This document shows, in pieces, positions 41,855-60,622 of a stretch of 64,000 nucleotides of DNA. Where the stretch lies: contig JANSYM010000003.1 of NCBI GenBank assembly GCA_024742355.1, forward strand, positions 75,351 to 139,350, given 5' to 3'. This DNA is from Hyphomonadaceae bacterium. Lineage in GTDB: Bacteria; Pseudomonadota; Alphaproteobacteria; Caulobacterales; Hyphomonadaceae. The notes under the pieces are model-generated. The model did not search any database. It saw nothing but the letters and a program-made list of their open reading frames with translations, and was not told the origin of the DNA. A program made the translations under genes and the position numbers. Each line of letters begins with the position of its first letter. The first letter of the stretch is position 1.

Positions 41855-43416
41855 GAGACAGGTTCCAGTATCGGAGCGGAATTGGTGTCGAGGGACAGAA
41901 AGGTGCGGGCCGGGTCTGTCTGCGTACCCGGAAAATCGCTGCGGAAATGGCCGCCGCGACTTTCCTCACGCTTGAGCGCGGCAGACGCGATCAGGCGGGC
42001 GGCGACCAGCGTTCTGGCCGGACCATGGTTGCGTTCCAGAGCGTTTATTTCGTCGAGGAGCGCCGCTAATGCGGGCGCGTCTCTGACGACGCCGCATTTG
42101 GTCGCCATATGTTGACGCAGTTCCTGCAAAGCCTCGTCTGGAATGTCGGCTGGCAGCTCGCCGCGGCTCTCGCCAGCAAGTTTCAGGTCTGAGTCGCGCA
42201 GGCGGTCGGCAATTCGCGCCGCCATGACAACGGCTTCCAGCAGCGAGTTCGAGGCCAGGCGGTTCGCCCCGTGCGCCCCGGTGCTGGAACATTCGCCGCA
42301 GACGCTCAAGCCGTTCAGGCTGGAGCGGCCCCAGGTATCGGATAGAATCCCGCCCATATGATAGTGCATAGCGGGCGCGACCGGGATGGTTGCCTGTCGC
42401 GGATCGATGCCCGCCGCCATGCACGCGGCAAAGACGGTCGGGAAGTGATCCTTGATATGATCACCGATCGCGTCGCGGGTATCGAGATAGACTTTGCGGC
42501 CTTCCGACAGCTCGGTATGGATCGCGCGCGCAACCTCATCGCGAGGGGCCAGCTCGGCCTGCGGATGATAGCGCGACATGAAGGACTGACCATCTGCGCC
42601 GGTCAGGACCGCACCTTCGCCGCGCAAGGCTTCGGTGGCGAGCGGCGAGGGATCGAGGCCGACATCCATGGCGGTCGGGTGAAACTGCACAAATTCGGGA
42701 TCGGCGATCACGGCGCCGATTGACCAGGCCATGGCGAGTGCATCGCCGCGCGCTTGGGGTGGATTGGTGGTCACCCGGAACAGGCCGCCGGACCCGCCTG
42801 TGCACAAGACGGTTTCGGGGCTGGTAAACGTCGATGTGCGTCCGCGCGCATCCTTCAGGATCGCACCGGCGACGCGGCCCTTGTCATCCTGCAGCAGACC
42901 AACCGCGCGCGCATGCTCGATGATCCGGATGTGTCCGGCTGCTTTCACGGCCGCCGTCAAGGCGCCCATAATGGCTTTCCCGGCGAGGTCCCCGGCAACG
43001 CGAGCAACGCGGGGGTGTGAATGGGCGGCTTCCAGGCTGAGCGCCAGGCGACCATCTGGTGTGCGGTCGAATGGAACGCCGAGTTCAATCAGGTCACGTA
43101 CACGTTTCGGGCCGTCTTCGGCGATGAGCTTGGCAATCGCCGGATCGACCAGGCCGGCGCCGGCGACAACCGTATCGGCCGCGTGCCGTTCCGGACTGTC
43201 CTGTGGATGCAGCGCGGCGGCGAGGCCGCCCTGGGCCCACGCCGAAGACGCGGCCTGTCCAAGCGGCGCAGGCGAAATAATGGTGCAAGGGCGCGGCGCC
43301 AGGCGCAGGGCGAGGAACAAGCCGGCCAATCCGGCCCCGACAATCAGAATGCGCGCATCGCCTGCTGCAGCAGGGGCGGTATATGTTTCGGGCCGAGGCC
43401 CGCCCATTGTGGTCAA
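41851..43416 (-). CDS. nadB: L-aspartate oxidase
   Basis: GAGLAG, SAWAQGG, EAAHS, QFHPT, HYHMGG and GANRLASNSLLE motifs; likely TTG start overlapping the upstream stop. Confidence 0.93.
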   Translation of the reverse strand: MTTMGGPRPETYTAPAAAGDARILIVGAGLAGLFLALRLAPRPCTIISPAPLGQAASSAWAQGGLAAALHPQDSPERHAADTVVAGAGLVDPAIAKLIAEDGPKRVRDLIELGVPFDRTPDGRLALSLEAAHSHPRVARVAGDLAGKAIMGALTAAVKAAGHIRIIEHARAVGLLQDDKGRVAGAILKDARGRTSTFTSPETVLCTGGSGGLFRVTTNPPQARGDALAMAWSIGAVIADPEFVQFHPTAMDVGLDPSPLATEALRGEGAVLTGADGQSFMSRYHPQAELAPRDEVARAIHTELSEGRKVYLDTRDAIGDHIKDHFPTVFAACMAAGIDPRQATIPVAPAMHYHMGGILSDTWGRSSLNGLSVCGECSSTGAHGANRLASNSLLEAVVMAARIADRLRDSDLKLAGESRGELPADIPDEALQELRQHMATKCGVVRDAPALAALLDEINALERNHGPARTLVAARLIASAALKREESRGGHFRSDFPGTQTDPARTFLSLDTNSAPILEPVS

Positions 43417-43841
43417 GAAATGCCCCCTTCGGCTCTCTTCCATTCTGCCGGCAAGACACTGCCAGCACTGACCAGCGCGCCATGCATGCGGGATGCCGAC
43501 TGGATAGTCAGGGTAAAATTATCGGGCGCGTAAAACGGGCTTTCGAATCCGTTGATGAACTCGACGATCCGGCAGCGTACCGAGAGCTGGTTGCCAAGCA
43601 CCGAAGCGCTGCAGTCTTGCCGGACAAGATAATCCTCGGGCAGGTCCGTACAGCTTTGGCGCGCTGTCAGCTCGCCGGTATAGCTTGTCTCATCGGTTTT
43701 CTCGAGGACCGCCGTACCACCGAAACTGCAATTATCAGAGATGTTCGCGGAGAAGGTCCATTGTCCGGCAATATTGGTGTCTGCCTGAACCGTGGGAGCG
43801 AGCAGTGAAAGGGACAGGAAGGCGACCAGCCAGCGGATCAT
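43413..43841 (-). CDS. Hypothetical secreted protein (paralog A)
   Basis: Signal peptide ending VQA-D; Cys-rich beta-strand protein; YAPDNFTLTIQ. Confidence 0.8.
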   Translation of the reverse strand: MIRWLVAFLSLSLLAPTVQADTNIAGQWTFSANISDNCSFGGTAVLEKTDETSYTGELTARQSCTDLPEDYLVRQDCSASVLGNQLSVRCRIVEFINGFESPFYAPDNFTLTIQSASRMHGALVSAGSVLPAEWKRAEGGIS

Positions 43842-44290
43842 GAGATTCCGTCTTCCGATCGTCGAAACTCAACCGGTGCCGTCGCCGCAGAAACCAGGGC
43901 GCCCCACATTCTGGTATGGTCCTGAATGGTCAGGCTGAAATTGTCAGGCACATAGATCAGACCTTCAATCTTCGCTTCCAGCATCTGCGTGATTTGCGAA
44001 CGGACTGAAACCTGATTGCCAAACCGGCGGGCCTTGCACGACTGCTCGACCACGGAACGGCCCCACATGGAGCAGACTTCGACAGCGGTGAGTTCGCACT
44101 CATACAGGCCGTCTTCCGGATGCGAACTGAGGCGCATCGTGCCTGTCATGATGCACTGGCCTTGACGGTAGGGCTTGGTCTGGAAGCTCCAGGAGCCAAG
44201 CACATCCGACGGGTCCTTGGTGTCGGCTTGAGCAGGGAGCAAGGCGAGGCCGAACAGTGCCGCAATACATGCGGTTACGAGCTTCGCCAT
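43838..44290 (-). CDS. Hypothetical secreted protein (paralog B)
   Basis: Signal peptide ending AQA-D; YVPDNFSLTIQ; ATGA overlap with paralog A. Confidence 0.8.
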   Translation of the reverse strand: MAKLVTACIAALFGLALLPAQADTKDPSDVLGSWSFQTKPYRQGQCIMTGTMRLSSHPEDGLYECELTAVEVCSMWGRSVVEQSCKARRFGNQVSVRSQITQMLEAKIEGLIYVPDNFSLTIQDHTRMWGALVSAATAPVEFRRSEDGIS

Positions 44291-45533: not shown

Positions 45534-45602
45534 TATGGGCGCGAAGAAGCTCGAGTTCAAGAATCGGCCTCAAAAATCAGAGAAACCCATCACGCCCCAC
45601 CC

Positions 45603-45623: not shown

Positions 45624-45706
45624 GCCCAATAGAGCAAAAAAACCGACAAGGCAAGACAATCTTCGATCGTGACTCCTGCAGTGGTCACAACACAGTGCGA
45701 GCGCTG

Positions 45707-45722
45707 TTAAGACTCTGTTAAC
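45707..45722 (+). promoter_or_regulatory. CtrA box with a GANTC site in its spacer
   Basis: TTAA-GACTCTG-TTAAC, a perfect TTAA-N7-TTAAC; GACTC at 45711-45715. Confidence 0.7.
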
Positions 45723-45740
45723 GATAAACTTCTTGCGGGA

Positions 45741-45780
45741 GAACAAAAGATGAATATAGATATTGGAACACAAGGAGAAC
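45741..45780 (+). promoter_or_regulatory. Two alphaproteobacterial LexA boxes
   Basis: GAAC-N7-GAAT (45741-45755) and perfect GAAC-N7-GAAC (45766-45780) overlapping the AAGGAG RBS. Confidence 0.72.
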
Positions 45781-45784
45781 AAAG

Positions 45785-46120
45785 ATGCGTGAGATCAAGT
45801 TTCGTGGCCGGTCAGGAAAGGCCTATTCTTTCATTCGGATGGCGCCCACTGCGCCCTGGGCCCGCGAATCTGGGGTGGCGCTGTTTGCGGCGCAAGGTCC
45901 ATTTGGCTGGCGTGTGGTGCGGCTGACAACGCTGCGCGGCCGTTTGCATGATGTGCAACCGATCTGGGCCTGGGCAGATGCAGAGCGGTATGGCGCGCGG
46001 ACCGTCTTTATCATGCGGGAAACCGACCCGTCCGATCGCGCATCGGCATTAGCGGACCTGGAAGCCGGTCTCAATCCCGTGCTCGAGCAGCCGCAAGCCG
46101 ACCTCGCCCTCGCCGCCTAA
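45785..46120 (+). CDS. Small hypothetical protein, possibly a degenerate GIY-YIG-like fold
   Basis: 111 aa; strong RBS; SGVALF...RGRLH...ALADLEAGLNPVL. Confidence 0.75.
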   Translation: MREIKFRGRSGKAYSFIRMAPTAPWARESGVALFAAQGPFGWRVVRLTTLRGRLHDVQPIWAWADAERYGARTVFIMRETDPSDRASALADLEAGLNPVLEQPQADLALAA

Positions 46121-47874
46121 TTGGCCAGGCGCGCGCCGTACCAGGCTTCGATATCGGTTTCGATGAAGGGCAGGGGGCGCGGGCCGGGTTGGATCAACGT
46201 GCGTTGGAAATCGGATTCTGAAAAGCGTTCTCCCAGAACCGCGCGCGCGCGTTCTGCCAGGGTCTCAAATCTGTGATAGGCCGCCGCCACCGATGTGTGA
46301 AAGCCGGGGCGCGCCATGATGCGAAGCGCAAGCTGCCGCGCCAGCGGCTCGCTCAGTCCCGCATTTTCTGAAATATAGCTCGTTGCTTCCGGCAAAGACC
46401 AGCGATCCAGATGAAGCCCGGTATCGGCGGCTGCCAGGGTCGAATGCATCAGTTTGATGGACGCGCGTGCCGCCTGGTCCAGCGGCGGCAAAGACGTGTT
46501 CTGGTAACTGTTTTGCCAGACATAGAGGCGCCAGGCCTCATCAATCGCTGCATAGGCCGTGATTGTCCGATAATCCGGCAGCTCGCCGTCGCCTTCCGTG
46601 CGCCAGGTCAGATAAGGCTGAGATTGCCACAGCGATTGGTACGTCGTCAGCGCGTCGGCTTGTGCTGCAAAGCTGGGGACGTCTTGAACCAACGCCCAGA
46701 CCGTCACAGGCGCAAGGTCACGAATGATATTGGCTTCTGGTTCCGTCATATCGTCGATCGGATCGACCGCGTCCGGGGATTGGACTTGCTGTTCAAACCA
46801 GCTCAAATGCTGACCCAGGTCTTCCGGCGGCTCGATGGGCTCTGCGGGCGGCGTCACTTCATCTGCGATGGGAAGCACCAACAGGCCGCGCACCGCTGCT
46901 GATTGCGTGGCGACATCGACCAGGTTTCGCGCATGCAGGCGGTCGCTGTTCATGGCCTCGCCCGTCGATGCTCTGAGAATGCCGACAAACAGATCCTGCC
47001 CCTTCGGCTGCGCCCAGACACCGGCCTGGTCAGACGCGGTGTCTGAATTCTCTGCGAGCGTCGCCGACAAATCTTGCAGGGCCGGTCGCAAACGCTCTGA
47101 GACTTCGCGCTGAACAACGATGATCAATTGATCGCGTTGCGCAGGCTCGAGGTCCGGCAGGTCGAGGGTCAAGGCTGCGAATGTCGCCGACAGCAGGTCG
47201 AGTGCCGAAGGGTCGTCGGATGTCAAAAGGTCCAATCGTTGCCGGGTTTCGTCCGCCAGCGCTCGCGGCAGATCGAGACCGGCGGCGCGGTCTGCAATCA
47301 GGCGTCGACGGGTGTCTTCCACCGCGGCACTCAGACTCTGCAAACGTGCAATATAGGCGGCCGCCTGGTCGATACTGTTGATCGACTGCTGATAGGCCAG
47401 CAGATTGGGCCCCTCGACCCAGATGCCGGAATAGGGGTCCACGGCGTACGGACGCTGCGCGACATAATCGAACCGGCCATAGCCCAGCTGCTCCAGCGCG
47501 ATCAGATCGACAATCGCGGCTTCAGCGATGGCAAGATCACGCGTCAGAGGATGGCTGTCGGCCAGACGCGGGCGCTGGCGCAGGCGCTGCAATAGCTCGA
47601 TGCGCACCAGTCGTCGTCGCTCGAACCCAGCCTGGGAATGATTGTCGAGCGCATAGATGGCGGAGGGGCCAAGATACGCCTCCATATCGAGGCGGCTCGC
47701 TGTCTCCGGCGACAATGAGAGCTCTGTACGCAGGAAGTCGCCGGCAATCGCTTGCGATTGCGTAATCGCGCGGCGCGCTGATCGCGATCCGTCTTCGCTT
47801 TGGCTGCACGCCGCCGGCGTCATCAGCGAAGCCGCTGTCAGCATTGAGAATGCGAGAATCTGAGCCCGTTTCAT
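46117..47874 (-). CDS. DUF885-like lipoprotein, degenerate
   Basis: Start MKRAQILAFSM...PAAC; SPETAS.L and ID.GLH.D.WS resemble DUF885; no HExxPGH motif. Confidence 0.7.
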   Translation of the reverse strand: MKRAQILAFSMLTAASLMTPAACSQSEDGSRSARRAITQSQAIAGDFLRTELSLSPETASRLDMEAYLGPSAIYALDNHSQAGFERRRLVRIELLQRLRQRPRLADSHPLTRDLAIAEAAIVDLIALEQLGYGRFDYVAQRPYAVDPYSGIWVEGPNLLAYQQSINSIDQAAAYIARLQSLSAAVEDTRRRLIADRAAGLDLPRALADETRQRLDLLTSDDPSALDLLSATFAALTLDLPDLEPAQRDQLIIVVQREVSERLRPALQDLSATLAENSDTASDQAGVWAQPKGQDLFVGILRASTGEAMNSDRLHARNLVDVATQSAAVRGLLVLPIADEVTPPAEPIEPPEDLGQHLSWFEQQVQSPDAVDPIDDMTEPEANIIRDLAPVTVWALVQDVPSFAAQADALTTYQSLWQSQPYLTWRTEGDGELPDYRTITAYAAIDEAWRLYVWQNSYQNTSLPPLDQAARASIKLMHSTLAAADTGLHLDRWSLPEATSYISENAGLSEPLARQLALRIMARPGFHTSVAAAYHRFETLAERARAVLGERFSESDFQRTLIQPGPRPLPFIETDIEAWYGARLAN

Positions 47875-48006
47875 GGCTTCAGATAAGCGCGATTTGTGCA
47901 AAGAAGTATGAAACATCTGCAATTGCTGCATTCCTTGCCACTCTTCCTGTTGTCGGCCTTGGTCATTTCCGTTACACCCCGCCAGTCTTACCAAGCGGAG
48001 TGACCC

Positions 48007-48822
48007 GTGGAAAATACCCCGAACACACAAAATCCTGAACTGACCGGAAACGTTCTGTTCTACAAGAACCCTCAACCTCTGAACCCGGAACAGCATGCTG
48101 GTTTGGGTGTAAAGCAGATCGATGATCCCTTCGGTTTCCTGCGCACCGCACACGCCGTTCCTGTAACCGTCACCGAATTCGGCATGACCGCGACGGCTTA
48201 TCCGATCATCTTTGTCGGCGAAGAGTTTACGCCGATTGCGGCGATGGGCGTGCGCCAAGGCGAGAACCTGTTCGTTCGCGACGATGGCCAGACGGAGCCG
48301 GATTATTACATCCCGGCCTTCGTACGCCGCTATCCGTTCGTGTTTGCCAATGACAATAATAGCGAACGTCTGTTGCTCTGCGTCGACCGCGATGCGCCGA
48401 TGGTGACCAACCAACCGGAAGTGCCATTGTTCGAAAATGGCGAGCCGAGCGAGTTCACGCAGAACGCAATCGAATTCTGTCAGGAGTTCGAACGCCAACG
48501 CCGCGCCACGGAAGATTTCGTCAAGATCGTTCGCGGCATGGGCCTGTTCGAGCAAAAGACCGTGGCGTTCCAGCCGCGCGATCCGCAAGGCAATCCGGTT
48601 GGTGAACAACAAAAGATCGCTGATTACTGGGCGATTGATGAGAACAAGCTGGCTGAACTGTCGCCAGAACAGTTTGCCGAGCTGCGCACCAATGGTGCTC
48701 TTGGTGCGATCTATGCGCACCTGATCTCGCTGCTCAACTGGCAACGCATCATTCAGCGTGCCCTGGCAAAATCTCAGGCACAGGCGACTGCCGCTCCAGC
48801 GGCTGAGGCGCCAATCGCCTAA
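48007..48822 (+). CDS. SapC family protein
   Basis: VTEF..TATAYPIIF, YIPAFVRRYPF and AIYAHLISL motifs. Confidence 0.88.
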   Translation: MENTPNTQNPELTGNVLFYKNPQPLNPEQHAGLGVKQIDDPFGFLRTAHAVPVTVTEFGMTATAYPIIFVGEEFTPIAAMGVRQGENLFVRDDGQTEPDYYIPAFVRRYPFVFANDNNSERLLLCVDRDAPMVTNQPEVPLFENGEPSEFTQNAIEFCQEFERQRRATEDFVKIVRGMGLFEQKTVAFQPRDPQGNPVGEQQKIADYWAIDENKLAELSPEQFAELRTNGALGAIYAHLISLLNWQRIIQRALAKSQAQATAAPAAEAPIA

Positions 48823-59746: not shown

Positions 59747-60622
59747 ATGAGTTACAAGACACTTCTCGCGCCGTTGCAGTTCAAAGAAACGGCTGAAGCG
59801 ATTATGAGCAGCGCTATGGTGGTGGCGAATGAGTTTGGCAGCCATGTGCATGCCAAACATGTCAGAGCACCCTTTGTTGCCTTCGCGCCTTACGCCTATC
59901 ACACGATCAGCATGGCGACGGCGCCTGTCATGGTGTCGGAACAGTTTGATGCTGCAACAGCCGAACATGCCGCAGCACTGAAGAGCATTTTTGAGTCCGA
60001 GTGCAAACGTAGGGCGCTGCGCATTGTGCCTTTCAGCGAAGGTTGCGCCAGCCCGAAGAAGTCGGCTTCCTGGAGCGACACAACCGGTCCGGTTATCCAG
60101 AGCATGGCTCACTTTGGCCGGGTCTGCGATTTGTCGATCGTTACCCTCCCGGACAAGGGCAATGAACGGCGGGACACGCCGCTGTTTGAAGGGCTTCTCA
60201 TGGCTTCTGGGCGCCCCGTTCTTGTGGTTCCCATCGATGGGCTAAAACGGATTCCGAAGCGGGTTCTCGTCGCTTGGGACGGTAGTTTGCCAGCGACCCG
60301 AGCCCTGCAACTGGCCTTGCCGCTGCTGGGCGCCGCCGATCAAGTGTTTGTGGCGACGGTTGGGGAAGTTGATTTTGGAATGCCCGATGCAGAAGACGCC
60401 GCCTCTTTTCTCGCCAGTCACGCGATCAATGCAGAAGCCCGAACTGTGGACTGGCCGAAGAAGCCGATTGCCGAACGCCTGATGAACCAGGCGGAAGCGA
60501 CAAATAGTGAGCTCATCGTGATGGGTGGATACTCTCACACGCGTCTCTATGAAACGCTCCTGGGCGGTACAACGCGCCACATGCTGGCGCACGCCGACCG
60601 CGCGCTGTTCCTCGCGCATTGA
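59747..60622 (+). CDS. Universal stress protein (tandem domains)
   Basis: SGRPVLVVP, VLVAWDGS..ATRAL and LIVMGGYSHTRL.E..LGGTTR motifs. Confidence 0.92.
   Translation: MSYKTLLAPLQFKETAEAIMSSAMVVANEFGSHVHAKHVRAPFVAFAPYAYHTISMATAPVMVSEQFDAATAEHAAALKSIFESECKRRALRIVPFSEGCASPKKSASWSDTTGPVIQSMAHFGRVCDLSIVTLPDKGNERRDTPLFEGLLMASGRPVLVVPIDGLKRIPKRVLVAWDGSLPATRALQLALPLLGAADQVFVATVGEVDFGMPDAEDAASFLASHAINAEARTVDWPKKPIAERLMNQAEATNSELIVMGGYSHTRLYETLLGGTTRHMLAHADRALFLAH

Follow-up and report, generated by a model that had tools for sequence, protein, structure and literature searches.

A Hyphomonadaceae-specific gene with putative LexA operators and a CtrA box encodes a predicted GIY-YIG pseudonuclease

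The 64,000-nucleotide (nt) stretch of Hyphomonadaceae DNA analyzed here (contig JANSYM010000003.1, positions 75,351 to 139,350; hereafter the window) contains, on its forward strand, a small open reading frame (ORF) that begins with an ATG at 45785, ends at 46120, and, as read from the sequence, encodes a protein of 111 amino acids (aa). A preliminary description of this DNA, made from its letters without database searches, had proposed that this small gene of unknown function is wired to both cell-cycle and SOS inputs. In the window, the gene is flanked by a divergent nadA gene on one side and by a convergent DUF885 gene on the other, with SapC beyond DUF885. The features of its promoter and product are as follows.

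45706..45722, forward strand: CtrA box GTTAA-N7-TTAAC with palindromic ends, assigned from conservation and from chromatin immunoprecipitation sequencing (ChIP-seq) of an orthologue.
45723..45732, forward strand: conserved A-rich linker of 10 nt, GATAAACTTC, that joins the CtrA box to the -35-like hexamer (consensus CAAAAACTTC or GATAAAnTTC).
45733..45738, forward strand: predicted -35-like hexamer TTGCGG (family consensus TTGCAT or TTGCGT), placed by a conserved CTTGC block.
45741..45755, forward strand: putative LexA box 1, GAAC-N7-GAAT, which lies in the promoter spacer and extends to the -10-like hexamer, assigned from conservation and its match to the consensus.
45755..45760, forward strand: predicted -10-like hexamer TATAGA (TATAAA or TATAAC in the family consensus), located 16 nt downstream of the -35-like hexamer.
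45766..45780, forward strand: putative LexA box 2, a perfect GAAC-N7-GAAC over the predicted start and the Shine-Dalgarno sequence, assigned from conservation.
45785..46120, forward strand: coding sequence, stop codon included, of the predicted 111-aa pseudo-GIY-YIG protein, from the ORF translation and its homologues.
45785..45844, forward strand: residues 1-20, modeled N-terminal beta-hairpin with the pattern F-x-G-x-S-G-x-x-Y-x-F, from an AlphaFold 2 model and alignments.
45866..46075, forward strand: residues 28-97, predicted degenerate GIY-YIG core (beta-beta-alpha-beta-alpha), from hhalign and a chain of profiles.
46082..46117, forward strand: residues 100-111, variable, ssrA-like tail ending in LALAA, from the alignment and a low predicted local distance difference test (pLDDT) score.

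The 111-aa protein has 107 homologues, all of them unnamed, from Henriciella, Hyphomonas, and Hyphomonadaceae metagenome-assembled genomes (MAGs). Of 1.84 billion representative proteins searched exhaustively with a profile, only 60 matched at E ≤ 0.001. A distant clade, ∼40% identical and marked by the hallmark motif WRWREARRYGA, is hosted by Hyphomonadaceae and Hirschia. Across the sequences searched, the family is restricted to Hyphomonadaceae, which are stalked, budding bacteria of marine and freshwater habitats. The order of the surrounding genes is constant, reading COQ9, DUF2794, small gene, DUF885 (minus strand), and SapC in Hyphomonas, and nadA is the upstream neighbor in Henriciella. 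The window itself derives from a phycosphere metagenome. Public RNA evidence consists of one 284-nt contig from a biofilm metatranscriptome, which spans positions 45845-46128, over the coding region, at 97% identity; it gives weak evidence for a transcript and is too little to locate a transcription start.

The preliminary description had placed a GAAC-N7-GAAT and a GAAC-N7-GAAC upstream of the ATG, and both are found there, at 45741-45755 and 45766-45780. The Shine-Dalgarno sequence GGAG (45774-45777) falls inside the second. GAAC-N7-GAAC is the published, experimentally defined SOS box of Caulobacter, GTTC-N7-GTTC, read on the opposite strand, and the LexA proteins of Hyphomonas neptunium and Caulobacter are 64% identical. 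By count alone the motif is not rare (2 observed in the window, 1.7 expected), so its significance comes from its conservation among orthologues. When the upstream regions of 80 genome loci and 40 metagenome loci were compared, a perfect GAAC-N7-GAAC was found over the ribosome-binding site in each of the 102 distinct orthologous promoters, with its first base 15-21 nt upstream of the ATG, and nearly all of these promoters had 1 or 2 extra boxes at -40 to -51. Counted by locus, the motif occurs between -120 and +3 in 81 of 81 cases, compared with 13 matches in 642 kb elsewhere, which corresponds to a density of 13 per kb in the promoters of the family versus 0.02 per kb in the remaining DNA. 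In these promoters the GAAC tetramers are kept and the spacers vary. The Hyphomonas promoters contain three tandem GAAC units at an 11-nt pitch in addition to the box over the ribosome-binding site, box 1 is a perfect GAAC-N7-GAAC in this clade, and LexA boxes are also present in the distant clade.

The remaining copies of the motif do not have these properties. The second GAAC-N7-GAAC of the window (60473-60487) is apparently located in coding sequence and has a GC-rich spacer, as do 12 others outside promoters in the compared loci, and all of these were set aside as chance matches. As a separate observation, three Hirschia-like promoters (L081, L082, and L113) have an additional upstream GAGAACAAAAAGTG element, for a total of three LexA-like boxes, and a degenerate CtrA-like box, TAAA-N7-TTAAC.

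The core promoter is as well conserved as the gene that it precedes. Identity across three clades is 0.67-0.70 for the region from -60 to 0 and 0.63-0.66 for the coding sequence, and it falls to a background of 0.21-0.34 between -260 and -130. A strict sigma-70 scan did not call the predicted promoter, so that the -35 and the -10 were assigned from conservation only.

We considered whether the GAAC repeats are sites of some other factor, such as the GGAAC -35 element of an EcfG-type stress sigma factor, or a translation-related sequence. GGAAC is indeed contained in several of the boxes. However, the arrangement GGAAC-N15-17-CGTT fits only 1 of 106 promoters, and an EcfG-type stress promoter was rejected on this basis; in both repeat unit and 11-nt register, the boxes agree exactly with the published SOS box; and boxes are also found upstream of the -10, where no role in translation is possible. 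These observations make a non-LexA origin of the repeats extremely unlikely. Based on the above comparisons, we infer that this gene is a member of the SOS regulon, with putative operators at which LexA would bind and from which DNA damage would relieve repression. The LexA wiring proposed in the preliminary description is supported by boxes upstream of every orthologue, including all 102 distinct promoters of the comparison, and upstream of relatives at the same chromosomal position that are described below.

The CtrA box reported in the preliminary description is also present, with its TTAA-N7-TTAAC core at 45707-45722. This sequence is expected 0.01 times per window, and no second perfect TTAA-N7-TTAA exists in the 64 kb. 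It is the consensus obtained by CtrA ChIP-seq in H. neptunium, TTAA-N7-TTAAC (PMC7200025). A CtrA box, as either TTAA-N7-TTAAC or TTAA-N7-TTTAC, was found in 93 of 106 distinct promoters, and its distance to the -35 takes only two values, 10 nt in 78 promoters and 21 nt in the 15 with the longer linker, which is that of the distant clade. These two distances differ by one helical turn, which is what an activator that has to face RNA polymerase should show. In a few distant members (L110 and L118) the CtrA box is lost and the LexA boxes are kept.

Direct evidence for CtrA at this promoter comes from a published data set for H. neptunium, in which ChIP-seq peak 839 (6.6-fold, summit at 3340105) was assigned to HNE_3159, annotated as a "hypothetical protein" (PMC7200025 supplement). 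The reverse complement of the sequence at the summit of peak 839 is the orthologous promoter. From the CtrA box to the ribosome-binding site, LexA boxes included, its sequence is the same as that of other Hyphomonas promoters. From this identity, we conclude that CtrA binds the orthologous promoter in vivo in this relative. Thus, the CtrA connection of the preliminary description was borne out by a box that is conserved among orthologues, phased to the -35, and occupied in H. neptunium. A weak second CtrA ChIP peak (2.8-fold, 3337456-3337862) is found in H. neptunium between SapC (HNE_3156) and DUF885 (HNE_3157) (PMC7200025, S6 Data); in the window, no TTAA-N7-TTAA, perfect or with one mismatch, was found at 47700-48100.

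The preliminary description had also proposed a cell-cycle input through CcrM, based on GANTC sites. The 285-nt intergenic region contains three such sites.

45561..45565, no strand: GANTC site GAATC, not conserved and probably outside the control region.
45671..45675, no strand: GANTC site GACTC, not conserved.
45711..45715, no strand: GANTC site GACTC in the spacer of the CtrA box, shared by the closest relatives only.

The sites exist where they had been reported, including the one within the CtrA box, and three of them in one intergenic region could suggest that the promoter is under additional CcrM/GcrA methylation control. Against this, only 16 of 81 loci have a GANTC between -120 and +3, never at a fixed position, and the corresponding spacer in other orthologues reads CCCTC, GGTTT, GACCT, and others, so that the spacer site is confined to the nearest relatives. 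We therefore regard the CcrM part of the earlier proposal as very unlikely.

The relationship of the 111-aa protein to known folds was traced through group B, the weakest matches of the exhaustive search. Group B sequences contain the GIY-YIG motifs G-[IV]-Y, Y-[IV]-G, R, H, E-x-D-L-I, and P-x-x-N, and 6 of 10 group B proteins touch the Pfam GIY-YIG family below threshold. When compared by hhalign, the profile of the window family (A1) matched that of group B (A5) with 99.7% probability (E = 3e-25, 108 columns), and the group B profile in turn matched the N-terminal GIY-YIG domain of Thermotoga maritima UvrC over the whole domain (E = 2.4e-5). By this two-step chain of profile comparisons, the window family is homologous to the GIY-YIG domain. 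Two AlphaFold models of the window protein (pLDDT 84 and 88) have the order beta-beta, then beta-beta-alpha-beta-alpha, the first two strands (residues 3-7 and 13-19) forming an extra N-terminal hairpin that groups A and B share. No membrane segment is present (the highest Kyte-Doolittle score over 19 residues is 0.75), and as modeled the protein is a soluble alpha/beta domain. A likeness of residues 9-30 (45809-45874) to a WW domain (SGKAYSF...PWARESG compared with SGRVYYF...QWERPSG of Pin1) had E = 0.45 and was dismissed as chance.

The catalytic positions of the GIY-YIG domain were then read from an alignment of 372 sequences that includes 240 members of the family. The residues of the window protein at these positions are listed below.

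UvrC Tyr19 (GIY): Ala32 in the window protein; all 240 family members have Ala, Val, or Ile.
UvrC Tyr29 (YIG): Arg46 in the window protein; Arg, Lys, or Ser in most of the family.
UvrC Arg39: aligns with Asp56 of the window protein by hhalign, or with a gap when the 372 sequences are aligned.
His of the family motif: Ile60 in the window protein.
UvrC Glu76 (metal-binding): Leu89 in the window protein; Leu, Ile, Met, Ala, or Val in the family.
UvrC Asn88 (structural): Glu101 in the window protein; a gap or variable in the family.

None of the 240 family members has the canonical residue at any of the six positions. Judged from these residues, the 111-aa protein is most likely a catalytically dead pseudonuclease. 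With every catalytic residue gone, the product would therefore have to act by binding and not by cutting. The profile comparison and these counts agree with the preliminary description, which had noted a loose GIY-YIG layout that lacks the tyrosines and the catalytic Glu.

The same counts bear on the possibility that the gene encodes an active, small, SOS-induced repair endonuclease resembling Cho or the N-terminal part of UvrC. Homology to GIY-YIG and LexA control, as is known for E. coli Cho, are what such an enzyme would have. However, the positions of both Tyr residues and of the Arg, His, Glu, and Asn are non-canonical in 240 of 240 members, and no alternative set of conserved acidic residues or histidines is present at the catalytic positions. 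We give an active nuclease hardly any credence.

The C terminus of the protein is distinct from the folded core. Its mean pLDDT is ∼50 from residue 101 onward, dropping below 50 at residues 105-111 of model 1 and at 104-106 of model 2, and the tail is probably disordered. The linker that precedes it varies in length and sequence among family members. In contrast to this linker, the final residues are constrained, because 231 of 239 family members (∼97%) end in -AA, mostly as LAA, IAA, MAA, or VAA. In the window protein, LALAA fits the ClpXP degron consensus [L/F/Y/W]-[L/A/R]-L-A-A (ClpX C-motif-1 class). Thus, the tail is likely to be a ClpXP degron, through which the protein would be degraded. 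The preliminary description had overlooked the Ala-Ala tail, as well as the restriction of the family to Hyphomonadaceae and the existence of LexA-boxed, partly intact relatives in other Caulobacterales.

These relatives were found among the group B proteins, in which two subgroups can be recognized. Group B2 consists of ten proteins that have both tyrosines, none of which ends in -AA; the two B2 loci examined are in unrelated, AT-rich contexts without LexA boxes. Group B1 consists of 118 proteins from Caulobacterales, Terricaulis, and MAGs labeled "Hyphomonadaceae". They have Phe at the position of UvrC Tyr29, keep the other five catalytic residues (Tyr, Arg, His, Glu, and Asn), and end in -AA in 83 of 118 cases. 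Four B1 loci were examined (e.g. those of P0333, P0369, P0403, and P0312). In all four, two perfect GAAC-N7-GAAC boxes are present and the gene directly upstream is a divergent one of the FUR family (L125-L128), three have a DUF885 gene 2-3 kb downstream, beyond a VWA gene, and a CtrA box was found in none of the four promoters. Based on their surroundings, the B1 genes are relatives at the same chromosomal position as the window family. Two further details of these loci are that the gene between B1 and DUF885 in L125, L126, and L128 is of the VWA/YfbK type and that B1 LexA box 1 (GGAACTTTACAAGAAC) holds a TTTACA that could be a -35.

When the three groups are placed side by side, the likely order of events is that an active small GIY-YIG nuclease became an SOS gene whose active site was weakened and that had a degron, and that in Hyphomonadaceae the site was then fully lost and the CtrA box gained. 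The comparison suggests that the gene of the window is an SOS gene that encodes a pseudonuclease and has acquired CtrA control.

Taken together, we put at roughly 70% the probability that this is a Hyphomonadaceae-specific, CtrA-modulated SOS gene whose product is a stand-alone, catalytically dead, UvrC-related GIY-YIG domain with an extra hairpin and a degron tail. If so, in the absence of damage LexA would occupy two or more direct-repeat operators, one between the -35 and the -10 and another over the start site and the ribosome-binding site, and would block RNA polymerase. Self-cleavage of LexA, stimulated by RecA, would then allow the promoter to fire. The output would be boosted by phosphorylated CtrA sitting one or two turns of the helix upstream of the -35, although the sign of this effect is our assumption. 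With such a boost, expression would be highest in the CtrA-active stages of the cell cycle, that is, in late predivisional cells, buds, or swarmer cells. Removal by ClpXP through the C-terminal tail would mean that the protein is present only as a pulse, during which it would bind DNA or a repair or cell-cycle protein as its presumed target.

Several results weigh against this interpretation. At the promoter, box 1 of the window is imperfect, with one mismatch (GAAT). In addition, activating full CtrA motifs in Caulobacter usually overlap the -35, whereas the CtrA box described here is farther upstream; there may be a separate CtrA-dependent start near 45746, which LexA box 1 would still cover. 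Expression data for the H. neptunium orthologue do not show a clear response to CtrA. HNE_3159 has a sizeable basal expression, with a value in reads per kilobase per million mapped reads (RPKM) of 326 in the wild type compared with 770 in a divJ deletion (2.4-fold up, p = 0.19), and it is absent both from the CckA/ChpT depletion regulon, defined by a 2.5-fold threshold, and from the "direct regulon" (PMC7200025). Given the p value of 0.19 for the divJ effect, the basal expression, and the lack of a depletion response, the effect of CtrA may be small or large and could even have either sign. Repression by LexA may mask a dependence of HNE_3159 on CckA-ChpT-CtrA.

Other results bear on the protein. 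Sequence searches of Pfam, NCBIfam, and the PDB with the window protein gave no match, a mixed profile of 84 sequences did not match UvrC in the PDB, and Foldseek comparison of the two models with the PDB found no GIY-YIG match and nothing below E = 0.2. In BFVD, the best Foldseek matches by template modeling (TM) score were phage GIY-YIG endonucleases (TM 0.41-0.49), but with E values of 0.26-1.3. Because the mixed profile and the Foldseek search of the PDB were negative, the fold assignment rests on the transitive profile chain. Finally, the charge of the protein is not consistently basic across the family, and DNA binding is not evident from its composition.

This last point is relevant to the idea that the protein is a non-catalytic binder of DNA or lesions that modulates excision repair or recombination, for example by occupying the docking site of the UvrC/Cho nuclease domain or by marking damaged or branched DNA. 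The closest solved relative is the domain of UvrC that makes the 3' incision, and the first 80 residues of the window protein (net charge of +8) and of its clade (mean of +5.3) are basic. The B1 relatives, which keep Arg, His, Glu, and Asn and have Phe in place of Tyr29, further suggest that binding was retained as chemistry was lost. However, the basic charge is not conserved in the distant clade (mean of 0), all of the residues by which GIY-YIG domains contact DNA and metal are replaced in the family, and there is no linkage to uvr genes. DNA binding is thus plausible and not indicated by composition, and we consider this specific role doubtful.

A more specific form of the preferred reading, that of a CtrA-modulated SOS pseudonuclease, is that the protein is a checkpoint effector that binds a component of division, budding, or replication initiation and delays the cell cycle after damage, working like SidA, DidA, or SulA and unrelated to them. 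A transient checkpoint signal would need just what is combined here, LexA control, CtrA control, and a degron; the loss of the catalytic site is consistent with action by binding; and synteny provides no link to repair genes. On the other hand, the protein has no membrane segment, unlike SidA and DidA, searches of Pfam, NCBIfam, and the PDB revealed no homology to known division inhibitors, and nothing points to a partner. We therefore consider this form of the reading tentative and on balance unlikely. In its boldest version, to which we attach the same low likelihood, a nuclease domain could have been converted into a module for binding alone, and the protein could be the effector of a new damage checkpoint specific to budding Hyphomonadaceae, accumulating only when LexA is cleaved and CtrA is active. 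In this version it would block a late step of the cell cycle, such as passage of the chromosome into the bud, division, or re-initiation, and its erasure by ClpXP would restart the cycle.

Some additional features of the neighborhood were recorded. The stop codons of the small gene (TAA, 46118-46120) and of the convergent DUF885 gene (46117-46119, minus strand) overlap. No hairpin resembling a terminator was seen between the two genes, which in Hyphomonas are separated by a gap of 10-110 nt. No known RNA family was found in the intergenic region and no tRNA in the 64-kb window. A pair of tandem paralogous ORFs of ∼145 aa each (43413-43841 and 43838-44290, both on the minus strand) overlap by 4 nt and have signal-peptide-like N termini and similar ends (...AEWKRAEGGIS and ...VEFRRSEDGIS); the pair recurs beyond nadA in Henriciella mobilis (L062). 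Three contigs that contain the small gene and its promoter (L001, L072, and L074) are from MAGs labeled Pseudophaeobacter, Candidatus Sulfopaludibacter, and Acidobacteria, labels that are probably the result of mis-binning.

In the literature searched, no SOS-controlled dead GIY-YIG protein has been described, and HNE_3159 is not named in the main text of any article, its CtrA peak being given only in a supplementary table. In that literature the SOS gene proposed here, with its predicted pseudonuclease, is undescribed, and it belongs to two known kinds, the SOS regulon members and the derivatives of the GIY-YIG superfamily. The family and its relatives provide a predicted evolutionary series from nuclease to pseudoenzyme, from an intact GIY-YIG protein, through a LexA-boxed Phe variant with an Ala-Ala tail, to a dead form with a CtrA box, and the gene is a concrete candidate for a link from the SOS response to the CtrA cell-cycle circuit in Hyphomonadaceae. 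HNE_3159 is found in a genetically tractable model in which CtrA binding has already been measured, and the idea can therefore be tested directly. The promoter, conserved to the same degree as the coding sequence, could serve as a reference for dual input by LexA and CtrA and as an SOS reporter for the family.

Among known systems, the closest in structure is the N-terminal GIY-YIG domain of UvrC from T. maritima (PDB 1YCZ/1YD0), which has the same core order, beta-beta-alpha-beta-alpha, and is homologous through the profile chain. The window protein differs from this domain as a stand-alone protein of 111 aa with an extra N-terminal hairpin and a degron-like tail, in its shortened first helix (the helix of the catalytic Arg in UvrC), and in the replacement of Tyr19, Tyr29, Arg39, Glu76, and Asn88. 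Cho (YdjQ) of E. coli is an SOS-induced, LexA-controlled homologue of UvrC, an active 3'-incision nuclease of ∼295 aa with its catalytic residues intact. Both Cho and, as predicted, the window protein are LexA-controlled and built on a GIY-YIG domain of the UvrC type, and the window protein is one third the size and lacks the catalytic residues. The group B1 proteins resemble the window family in their small architecture, N-terminal hairpin, DUF885 neighborhood, two LexA boxes, and Ala-Ala tail, and they differ from it by keeping five of six catalytic residues and by the lack of a CtrA box in the four promoters examined.

In Caulobacter crescentus, SidA and DidA are small inner-membrane division inhibitors that are induced by DNA damage. 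Like them, the window gene is small, lineage-restricted, from the same order, and, as predicted, linked to DNA damage. The window protein differs in being predicted to be soluble and to have a nuclease-derived fold, its gene has a CtrA site in addition, and there is no homology. DidA is controlled by DriD and not by LexA. SidA is LexA-controlled (PMC4211646). The preliminary description had likened the gene to sidA and didA in function and had not identified it as either, a caution upheld by the lack of a membrane segment and of homology to both. A final comparison is with SOS proteins that are removed by proteolysis, such as E. coli RecN (C-terminal LAA), LexA fragments, and UmuD', which are degraded by ClpXP, and SulA, which is degraded by Lon. 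These proteins are unrelated to the window protein, and what they would have in common with it is damage-induced expression together with a built-in degradation signal, which for the window protein is predicted here.

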